From a virus (taxonomy: Duplodnaviria > Heunggongvirae > Uroviricota > Caudoviricetes), in the IMG/VR virus record IMGVR_UViG_3300033494_000001: a stretch of DNA of 64,000 nucleotides, one strand, 5' to 3'. The position numbers and the translations under genes were made by a program. Below the pieces are notes generated by a model. The model had not been told where the DNA came from and made no database searches. It saw only the letters and a program-made list of their open reading frames with translations. Below, piece by piece: positions 11,287-12,588 of this stretch (its first letter is position 1; each line of letters starts with the position of its first letter).

Positions 11287-12588
11287 TTAAAATCGAAATA
11301 ATTCATCTACTTCTTTTCCTTCTCTAACAAGATTGTCCGAAGTTCCGCCTGCTAAAATATCAATCAATTCTTCTTCCGAAATCTCAATATAATTTTTACC
11401 AGCCATTGATGTGTTAAACCAACTTTCTTCCATGGTTCCTTTAATTACTAAAGTAAATACTTCAGCTTCCTTTCCTTCTTCATACCTAATTACACGGCCT
11501 AATCGCTGTGTCTTTTGAGTTTGAGAAGAAGTATTACATAGAATAACTGCTAAACTTAAACCAGGTACATCAGCACCTTCGTCAAGACTTTTCGCAGTAT
11601 GAATCACTCCTGTTTTCATAGGAGCAAATTCTTCCATTGTAATTCTATTTTTCTTCTTAGTTTTACCTGAATGAATTATTAAACCATTACCAATCTTTTC
11701 GGCTTGTTTAATAGTAGCTGAAAATGTGATGGCTTTTTTATTTGGTCTTGCTTTTAAAATCTGTTGTGCAAGTTCAACTTTTTTTGGATGGTTCATTACA
11801 TAACCTTTACGTACTTGTAATGCTCTACTCCAAGTAAATGCCATTGCAGTGATTTCTGCAAGCAATCCTTTTACAGTATCTTTATATCGTGGATGATATA
11901 AAGGTAATGTACAAAGTTGTTGGGCATATTCATACCTTACAAAATGTGAAGGTTTTATTATTTTGTTATTTTTTTTGATTCCGCCTACACAATTCATTGC
12001 AAGATTAAAATCATTTTCAAAATAAGCAAAAGCATTTAAAAAATCTGCATTAGCTTGCCTATAAACTTCAATATCATCAGGCATAATTAATACTTTATAT
12101 TCTTTATAAGGAGCTAACCATTTGTTTTCAATGGCTTCTTTAACACTTAATACATCAATTACCGGACAGTAAGACTTTAATAATTCATGTCTACCATCTA
12201 AACGACTAAATGTCGCAGACAATCCAAGAACAACTTTAGGTCTTCGCTGTACAAATATCTGATAAAAAGTATCTGCAGCCATTCTGTGAACTTCATCTAA
12301 AATGATGAAATCTATACGTTCTGAAGATTTAATTGCAGAATTAATAATTTCAACTTGTACATAATCAAATATTCCAAATTTACTAAGTTCTTGATACCAT
12401 TGAATTTTTAAATATTCAGTTGGAACAATTACTACAATTTTTTTACCTTGATTCTTTGTTAGGAATGCTTTAATACCAATAATTGCAGCTCTAGTTTTAC
12501 CTGTCCCTGTACACCATTGTAAAGTACCTCTACATCCATTTTGTATTCATTTTTTAATTCCTAATTGTTGTCTTTCGTCACGTGTCAT
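11287..12588 (-). CDS. SF2 (DExH) helicase with in-frame TGA at codon 14
   Basis: Track ORF 11287..12282 holds only motifs V/VI (QRLGRVIR); extending to ATG at 12588 adds motif I CTGTGKT and motif II ILDEVH, but only by reading through TGA at 12547-12549; no alternative start exists after the TGA. Confidence 0.65.

Follow-up and report, generated by a model that had tools for sequence, protein, structure and literature searches.

How does a phage make a helicase from a gene in which a stop codon stands ahead of every catalytic motif? This question is raised by a 64,000-nt stretch of DNA (the window) from a tailed virus of the class Caudoviricetes (IMG/VR record IMGVR_UViG_3300033494_000001), in which all genes lie on the minus strand and the GC content is 32%. 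An open reading frame (ORF) of 433 codons at positions 12588–11287 (minus strand, as for all window genes described below) is complete apart from one TGA at codon 14 (12549–12547), the sole interruption of the frame. Its product is a predicted XPB/RAD25-like superfamily 2 (SF2) helicase with ResIII and Helicase_C domains. We conclude that the TGA is almost certainly translated, and we consider it highly probable that it is decoded as Trp by a Trp-derived tRNA(UCA) of the phage itself, which has a mixed genetic code.

The helicase gene starts with an ATG at 12588–12586 and ends with a TAA at 11289–11287. The reverse complement of this interval runs ATG ACA CGT … AAA AAA TGA ATA CAA … and is then open to the TAA; the local context of codon 14 is AAA TGA ATA. 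The 13 codons before the TGA (12588–12550) encode MTRDERQQLGIKK, including a conserved ERQ (codons 5–7) that corresponds by alignment to the Q motif. The program-made list of standard-code ORFs starts the gene at an ATG at position 12282, which is Met103 (12282–12280), and yields a truncated product of 331 aa (P0011). Since the list starts the helicase there, no ATG, GTG or TTG can lie between the TGA and Met103, as an earlier note on this DNA had stated. The same note placed the Walker A motif (motif I, TGTGKT) and motif II (DEVH) between the TGA and the internal Met, and we find them there, at codons 27–32 (12510–12493) and 98–101 (12297–12286), respectively. It was also right that the listed ORF starts at the internal Met, but not that this ORF holds only motifs V and VI, because motif III (GLSATF) and motif IV are retained as well.

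Translating the TGA as a residue and searching the product against profiles, the check that the note had proposed, gives a 433-aa sequence that matches the Pfam families ResIII (4.6e-19; 69.3 bits, cut-off 22.5; residues 6–129), DEAD (52.5 bits), Helicase_C (46 bits) and ERCC3_RAD25_C (29.6 bits, cut-off 27). The Q motif, TGTGKT, DEVH and SAT occur in this order, and they share one frame only if codon 14 is translated. The best match of solved structure is A. fulgidus XPB (PDB 2FWR; E = 2.7e-24), in which YQEKALER-W aligns to RQQLGIKK-W of the window protein, that is, a Q motif followed by a conserved Trp at the position of the TGA. The position of the gene in the replication module suggests that it is expressed early.

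What do relatives of the helicase carry at codon 14? In a protein search, over 100 homologs (408–436 aa) matched along their full length with 59–85% identity. Their N-termini have the form MTR(D/S)ERQ… or M(T)LDRTERQ…, and every one has Trp where it aligns to codon 14. We recovered DNA for ~40 related helicase loci, including contigs of human-gut phages with only 25% identity. The equivalent codon is TGG in all of them besides four further lineages, each with TGA at exactly codon 14: L001 (a 166-kb NCBI contig; 74% protein identity to the window helicase), L002/L008 (77%), L130/L131 (80%) and L132 (a member of a clade of 410-aa proteins; about 65%). The aligned residue is Trp at 37/37 loci, and no other residue occurs at codon 14. 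ERQ, which aligns to YQ of XPB, is likewise invariant in homologs down to 25% identity. Including the window genotype there are thus five TGA lineages, and the rest of the ORF is intact in each. The earlier note had named, before any search, a sense codon in a closely related phage as support for recoding, and homologs that begin at the internal Met without motifs I and II as evidence against it. Close relatives have TGG, and the homologs start at the same upstream Met and possess both motifs. A blastn search of GenBank phages with a 2-kb query from the helicase region gave no match, and the closest GenBank phage protein has 42% identity to the helicase.

Could the gene simply be broken? If the TGA were a nonsense mutation, a mark of a pseudogene or an artefact of sequencing, either nothing or just the C-terminal 331 aa would be made, and standard-code gene callers do report the 331-aa fragment (P0011, P0059). 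However, the window genotype was assembled independently, with identical sequence, from at least five samples (L003–L007), so the TGA is not an assembly error, and five diverged lineages have the TGA with no other disruption. For codons 15–102, the ratio of nonsynonymous to synonymous substitution rates (dN/dS) is 0.04–0.17 in pairs of TGA and TGG genes and 0.06 in a control pairing of TGG genes with each other; for codons 1–13 it is 0.1–0.2, with synonymous sites near saturation in these comparisons. The whole ORF is thus under purifying selection, and its action on the N-terminal region excludes that the gene is a pseudogene, that the TGA arose in assembly or that translation starts at Met103. 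Moreover, a fragment that lacks the Q motif and motifs I and II could not bind or hydrolyse ATP. We regard a defective gene as effectively refuted, with a negligible probability of being the correct explanation.

The same selection speaks against a start directly behind the TGA, at a codon that is ATA in the window gene and ATG in L132. Initiation there, or termination followed by reinitiation, would give a helicase that lacks residues 1–14. An NCBI annotation (P0015) does begin a 419-aa product at the ATA codon, and the gene caller used the ATG of L132. ATA supports initiation very poorly. All TGA lineages retain the ATG upstream and the MTR(D/S)ERQ peptide, at the low dN/dS given above for codons 1–13, and a shortened protein would have neither ERQ nor W14, both of which persist unchanged in homologs with as little as 25% identity and align to the Q motif and a Trp of XPB. 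The leader sequence favours neither candidate start, given the absence of Shine-Dalgarno enrichment described below. We consider a start after the TGA very unlikely.

Three observations concern the organization of genes in these relatives. L001 corresponds to NCBI JBMDUZ010000001.1 (166,429 bp), which was deposited as a Candidatus Saccharimonadaceae metagenome-assembled genome, with its helicase annotated from a non-canonical start after the TGA; the contig has the appearance of a complete genome from a phage of this group. In L049 (about 400–1480; also in L047, L050, L054 and L055), the helicase gene is split inside the Walker A codons (TGVG/KT) by a ~1.1-kb insertion with a LAGLIDADG endonuclease. 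A search of L047, L049, L001 and L130 with Rfam matched no intron model to this Walker A insertion of some relatives. PolA is called as two pieces in L002 (449–2424) and a LAGLIDADG ORF follows PolA in L130 (633–2605), which suggests that replication genes are interrupted more widely in these phages.

Is TGA used for Trp elsewhere in this genome? The 70 core genes in the window have 211 TGG codons and no TGA, and the helicase has five TGG and the one TGA. The five homing-endonuclease genes have no TGG and 15 TGA, and their Pfam domains (two GIY-YIG, two HNH and one PDDEXK_5) span the TGAs. These genes encode a GIY-YIG homing endonuclease that adjoins a group I intron (7839–8450; two TGA), an HNH homing endonuclease (26730–27164; three TGA), a PDDEXK_5 endonuclease (28904–29299; 6.8e-21; two TGA), a second GIY-YIG homing endonuclease (30671–31327; five TGA) and an HNH_2 endonuclease (41348–41908; three TGA). 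A 258-aa protein with a signal peptide (39628–40404) has TGA at codons 18 and about 151 and no TGG; searches gave no family match for it. A sixth, HNH-like gene (6706–7287) has six TGG and no TGA.

Beyond the window, the sequence can be followed on overlapping contigs: L065 overlaps window positions 63025–64000 with 99.4% identity, L068 overlaps L065 with 100% identity, and L129, which comes from the same sample as L061 and L064 (both of the window genotype), matches L068 with 99.9% identity across 4.5 kb. The late genes of the adjoining contig have 21 TGG and 27 TGA (Fisher p = 7e-24). On L129, the gene for the terminase large subunit (732 aa; phrog_6681, 6e-61) has 13 TGA and two TGG, and that for the portal protein (phrog_6547, 9e-43) has four TGA and one TGG; both PHROG matches were obtained only when TGA was translated as Trp. 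A PhoH-like gene, which precedes the late genes on L129, has no TGA. Recoded codons are thus concentrated in late genes and the core genes are compatible with the standard code. We take the window phage to be a mixed-code, TGA-to-Trp recoded phage, a known kind.

TGA has not lost its role as a stop codon. Among the standard-code ORFs, 14/116 end in TGA, 7–8 of them in ATGA overlaps with the start of the next gene. At 15745–15743, in one such overlap, 14/14 orthologs end in TAA at the same codon; at 10612–10610, TAA ends 5/5 orthologs at the same codon. The earlier note had taken the helicase as support for TGA recoding and had suggested translation with table 4. Recoding is upheld by the TGG relatives, by the UCA tRNAs described below and by the TGA-rich terminase and portal genes on overlapping contigs, but a uniform table 4 does not fit a module in which TGA is also a genuine stop.

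What could decode TGA as Trp? Two tRNA(UCA) genes are present on L065/L068, about 2.9 kb and 10.6 kb past the end of the window. The first (tRNA #1; L065 660–735, equal to L068 185–259) lies at the equivalent of window position ~66.9 kb, on the strand of the window genes and upstream of all of them. The second (tRNA #2; equivalent to ~74.6 kb) lies on the opposite strand, past a strand switch and upstream of the PhoH-like gene. It scores 63.3 bits and has a canonical 72-nt 7/5 cloverleaf with a 5-nt variable loop, G73 and the anticodon loop CUUCAAA. Members of the tRNA #2 family occur on seven IMG/VR contigs. On one of these, L125, the suppressor tRNA gene is located 125 nt from a gene for tRNA-Trp(CCA); the two anticodon loops are equal except for C34, and the stems differ at the closing pair only. 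From this near-identity of the anticodon arms we conclude that the family is derived from tRNA-Trp. We infer that the UCA tRNAs are carried by the genome from which the window comes.

Some features of these and related loci are recorded here as observations. tRNA #1 could form a G-1:C73 pair, as in tRNA-His, and a similarity search against the window tRNAs revealed no clear parent of it. UCA suppressor tRNAs with a ~25-nt insert after the anticodon arm are encoded on L124 (639–734), L125 (13002–13098) and L126 (1565–1661); the insert forms a hairpin with a loop that resembles the CCA (Trp) anticodon loop (e.g., GGGGTCTCCAAAACCTC). A pistol ribozyme match lies on L068 (1893–1956, minus strand; 38.8 bits, gathering threshold 34.5), ~1.6 kb from tRNA #1. 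Scans for tRNAs in the flanks of 15 related helicase loci found nothing, and a pattern scan of the genome contigs for suppressor tRNAs gave 54 chance matches with no tRNA among them.

Several points weigh against decoding of codon 14 by the phage tRNA(UCA). The window has 18 tRNA genes and a transfer-messenger RNA (tmRNA) gene, and none of these tRNAs has the anticodon UCA. The link between the window and the tRNA(UCA) genes rests on overlaps with contigs from other samples. tRNA #1 departs from the usual form, with a score of 37.9 bits, two extra nucleotides ahead of the D stem and the discriminator C73. Charging of tRNA #2 with Trp is presumed from what we take to be the identity elements of tRNA-Trp. 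Finally, TGA is a working stop in the same module; codon 14 can therefore be decoded only in part or only at certain times.

Might the host manage without a phage tRNA? Host tRNA-Trp(CCA) alone could misread a leaky UGA-A at codon 14, such that a few percent of full-length helicase would be made and no suppressor would be needed, much as in the coat/A1 readthrough of Q-beta. In E. coli, tRNA-Trp reads UGA leakily when the next base is A. An A lies directly 3ʹ of the TGA in all five TGA lineages (AA[A/C] TGA AT[A/G]), and sense TGAs are modestly enriched for A at this position (43%, versus 26% after TGG). However, the phage population itself encodes UCA tRNAs, and its terminase gene, with 13 TGAs, could not be expressed at a few percent of readthrough per codon. 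Hence, a dedicated decoder exists and would act on codon 14 too. Misreading by the host and suppression by the phage are also compatible with each other early in infection. We therefore consider it unlikely that the host tRNA acts alone. Two related mechanisms were rejected. Programmed readthrough of the type that produces the A1 protein of Q-beta does not apply, since the terminated product would be 13 residues long with all catalytic motifs downstream. The ribosome does not shift frame or hop at the run of A preceding the TGA either, since the frame is the same on both sides and L001 has no A-run (AAC TGA).

Alternatively, TGA could be a sense codon for the host, as Trp throughout (code 4) or as Gly (code 25), or could encode selenocysteine (Sec). 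ARAGORN labels the UCA tRNAs “SeC”, and the contig of one relative was binned as Candidatus Saccharimonadaceae. The genuine TGA stops described above, with orthologous TAA at the same codon and ATGA overlaps, argue against a native code of this kind, and the ratio of 211 TGG to no TGA in core genes at 32% GC is the reverse of that in native code-4 genomes. The residue aligned to codon 14 is always Trp and never Gly. tRNA #2, with its canonical cloverleaf and short variable loop, is not of the Sec type, and the homologs have Trp rather than Cys. The leaders lack Shine-Dalgarno motifs, and the helicase homologs in GenBank phages are all Bacteroidota-associated. A native code or selenocysteine is highly improbable. 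The idea of a selenoprotein gene was rejected, since neither a Sec-type tRNA, with an 8-bp acceptor stem and a long variable arm, nor Cys or Sec at the homologous position was found.

We propose that the window comes from a large phage (relatives are about 165 kb) with a mixed genetic code. Replication and housekeeping genes would be readable in the standard code, some of them ending in TGA, and homing-endonuclease and late structural genes would write Trp as TGA. The simplest reading follows the model published for recoded phages of standard-code hosts (Borges et al., bioRxiv 10.1101/2021.08.26.457843): early genes would be translated with the code of the host, and the suppressor tRNA would then permit expression of TGA-containing genes. 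At codon 14 of the helicase gene, the phage tRNA(UCA) would compete with release factor 2, and the product would be the helicase in its entire length of 433 aa, including the Q motif, the Walker A motif and DEVH. Helicase output would be set by the accumulated suppressor tRNA, such that codon 14 may act as a gate on dosage or timing. No phage release factor 1 or tryptophanyl-tRNA synthetase was found in the window ORFs scanned.

The host probably belongs to the Bacteroidota and uses the standard code, because the leaders are A-rich and show no Shine-Dalgarno enrichment (6/71 genes, versus a background of 9.8%), the helicase ATG is preceded at a distance of 57 nt by a TATCTTTG element, and the helicase homologs in GenBank phages all belong to Flavobacterium, Bacteroides, crAss-like or gut phages. 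The motif TAnnTTTG is not enriched overall (47 found, versus 40 expected), and a scan for sigma-70 promoters and terminators between PolA and the helicase gene was uninformative.

Why should this one codon be recoded? In the helicase tree, L001 groups with P0009, a TGG gene, with 100% bootstrap support. The clade of the window, L130 and L002 (94% support) includes P0001 and P0003, both TGG, and L002 lies outside the rest of this clade (81% support). L132 belongs to the 410-aa clade, in which the other members have TGG. Since the TGA lineages are scattered among verified TGG lineages, codon 14 has changed state at least four times. No change has occurred at the other five Trp codons of the helicase; with equal rates, the chance that all changes would fall on one of six Trp codons is about (1/6)^3 = 0.005. 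A distant relative, L021, has TGA at W23 instead, likewise before Walker A. Across the replication modules of relatives, a survey of 939 TGG codons revealed no further non-mobile gene in which an internal TGA aligns with a Trp of the window and, homing-endonuclease genes aside, the helicase is almost the sole replication-module gene with an internal TGA. L056 and other TGG lineages also have TGA-rich endonuclease genes, so the difference between TGG and TGA at codon 14 is not simply one between recoded and non-recoded phages.

A second non-mobile gene of the window needs TGA decoding. It encodes a resolvase-like PD-(D/E)XK nuclease (3529–3978) with TGA at codon 12 (3945–3943), and no start codon occurs from this TGA to Met69. 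The match to a PHROG family of RusA-like resolvases (residues 27–97) starts upstream of Met69, and the gene shares 40 nt at its 5ʹ end with the end of the primase gene. The TGA is retained in most relatives; L010 has the same MARKKK N-terminus and no stop.

One interpretation of the recurrent changes is that TGA at codon 14 is not a neutral side effect of recoding but a selected translational gate, which would keep the XPB-like helicase off or at a very low level until UGA-reading tRNA accumulates. A gate placed before Walker A would avoid the production of truncated ATPase fragments. The facts concerning this single TGA and the similar TGA of the neighbouring resolvase-like gene are compatible with a gate ahead of the catalytic motifs, short of proof. 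Alternatively, a TGA may simply be least harmful very near the 5ʹ end of a gene. We put the selected gate forward tentatively, as a possibility that we doubt more than we favour. What is new here is modest: a single recoded codon that recurs at the 5ʹ end of a replication-module helicase gene.

What is the significance of mixed-code genes for annotation and experiment? Standard-code gene calling truncates the helicase, to 331 aa in the JGI and Logan data and to 419 aa, starting from ATA, at NCBI, in a contig assigned to Candidatus Saccharimonadaceae. The genes for the terminase, the portal protein, the resolvase-like nuclease and the homing endonucleases are likewise broken into pieces when called in this way, and these genomes need mixed-code calling. 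Helicase genes that are otherwise similar differ naturally in whether this invariant Trp codon is TGG or TGA. They offer a clean test of the published idea that recoded stops time protein production during infection, and this test would concern a gene of DNA metabolism rather than a lysis gene.

Other features of the window lie outside this argument. A group I intron (7661–7902, with 8461–8757 upstream; Rfam 110 bits) and its GIY-YIG gene appear to interrupt a gene for a Sak4-like ATPase, the ORF of which is continuous past the break point in most relatives. The tRNA array comprises 18 genes (24849–42318) interleaved with endonuclease genes. Rfam adds two genes missed by ARAGORN, one for tRNA-Cys (40516–40587) and one for an odd tRNA with the anticodon UGG and a long insert (36096–36180). 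Neither program found a tRNA-Trp gene in the window, and the ARAGORN “tRNA-???” calls at 48143 and 52877 were rejected for lack of Rfam support. The tmRNA gene (46453–46788; Rfam 66.4 bits) has an ARAGORN-predicted tag peptide that ends in …MRLAA; we speculate that it may deal with ribosomes that run past genuine stops in a phage with recoding. A short adenylosuccinate-synthetase homolog (49600–50682; Pfam 3.3e-40) carries the PHROG name of a PurZ-type enzyme, which raises the possibility of a 2-aminoadenine (Z-base) genome. A tellurite-resistance-type cluster (53407–57260) encodes TerC, a von Willebrand factor A protein (vWA; TerF-like), a ComF-like phosphoribosyltransferase (PRTase), a HAD-like protein and TerD.

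How does the window phage compare with known systems? A preprint (Borges et al., bioRxiv 10.1101/2021.08.26.457843) describes TGA-to-Trp (code 4) recoded phages that infect standard-code hosts, in clades such as Agate, Jade and Sapphire. It reports that their late genes are recoded and that they have suppressor tRNAs, and also describes an intron endonuclease with a preference for TGA. The window phage has in common with them an AT-rich genome, probably a UGA suppressor tRNA of its own, TGA-rich structural and packaging genes, a replication module that is nearly free of TGA, and intron or homing endonucleases that prefer TGA over TGG. It differs in its origin from metagenomes (JGI, Logan) and in its helicase family, which is distinct, as the low identity of the closest GenBank phage match indicates. 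Keyword searches of the preprint revealed no counterpart to exactly one recoded codon, arisen repeatedly, at the 5ʹ end of a replication-module helicase gene.

The protein itself resembles archaeal XPB/RAD25 (2FWR) and XPBII in that the Q motif is followed by Trp and then by Walker A (YQEKALERW…PTGSGKT, versus RQQLGIKKW…CTGTGKT in the window protein), and in its DExH and SAT motifs and C-terminal RecA2 domain. Unlike them, the putative helicase of the phage is 433 aa long and has no N-terminal damage-recognition domain.

With respect to decoding, the nearest familiar case is the coat gene of Q-beta, in which readthrough of UGA by host tRNA-Trp gives the C-terminally extended A1 protein and both products are functional. 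In both phages, a UGA followed by A in a phage gene would be read as Trp. In contrast to Q-beta, the product that ends at the stop would be a 13-aa peptide in the window phage, and the phage would supply its own UCA tRNA. With respect to timing, T4 offers a functional analogy only: UvsW is an SF2 helicase that is expressed late, endonuclease VII is a junction-resolving enzyme, and the timing is set by late promoters. A helicase and a junction-resolving nuclease would be withheld until late in both phages but, unlike in T4, the delay in the window phage would be translational, imposed by a recoded codon.

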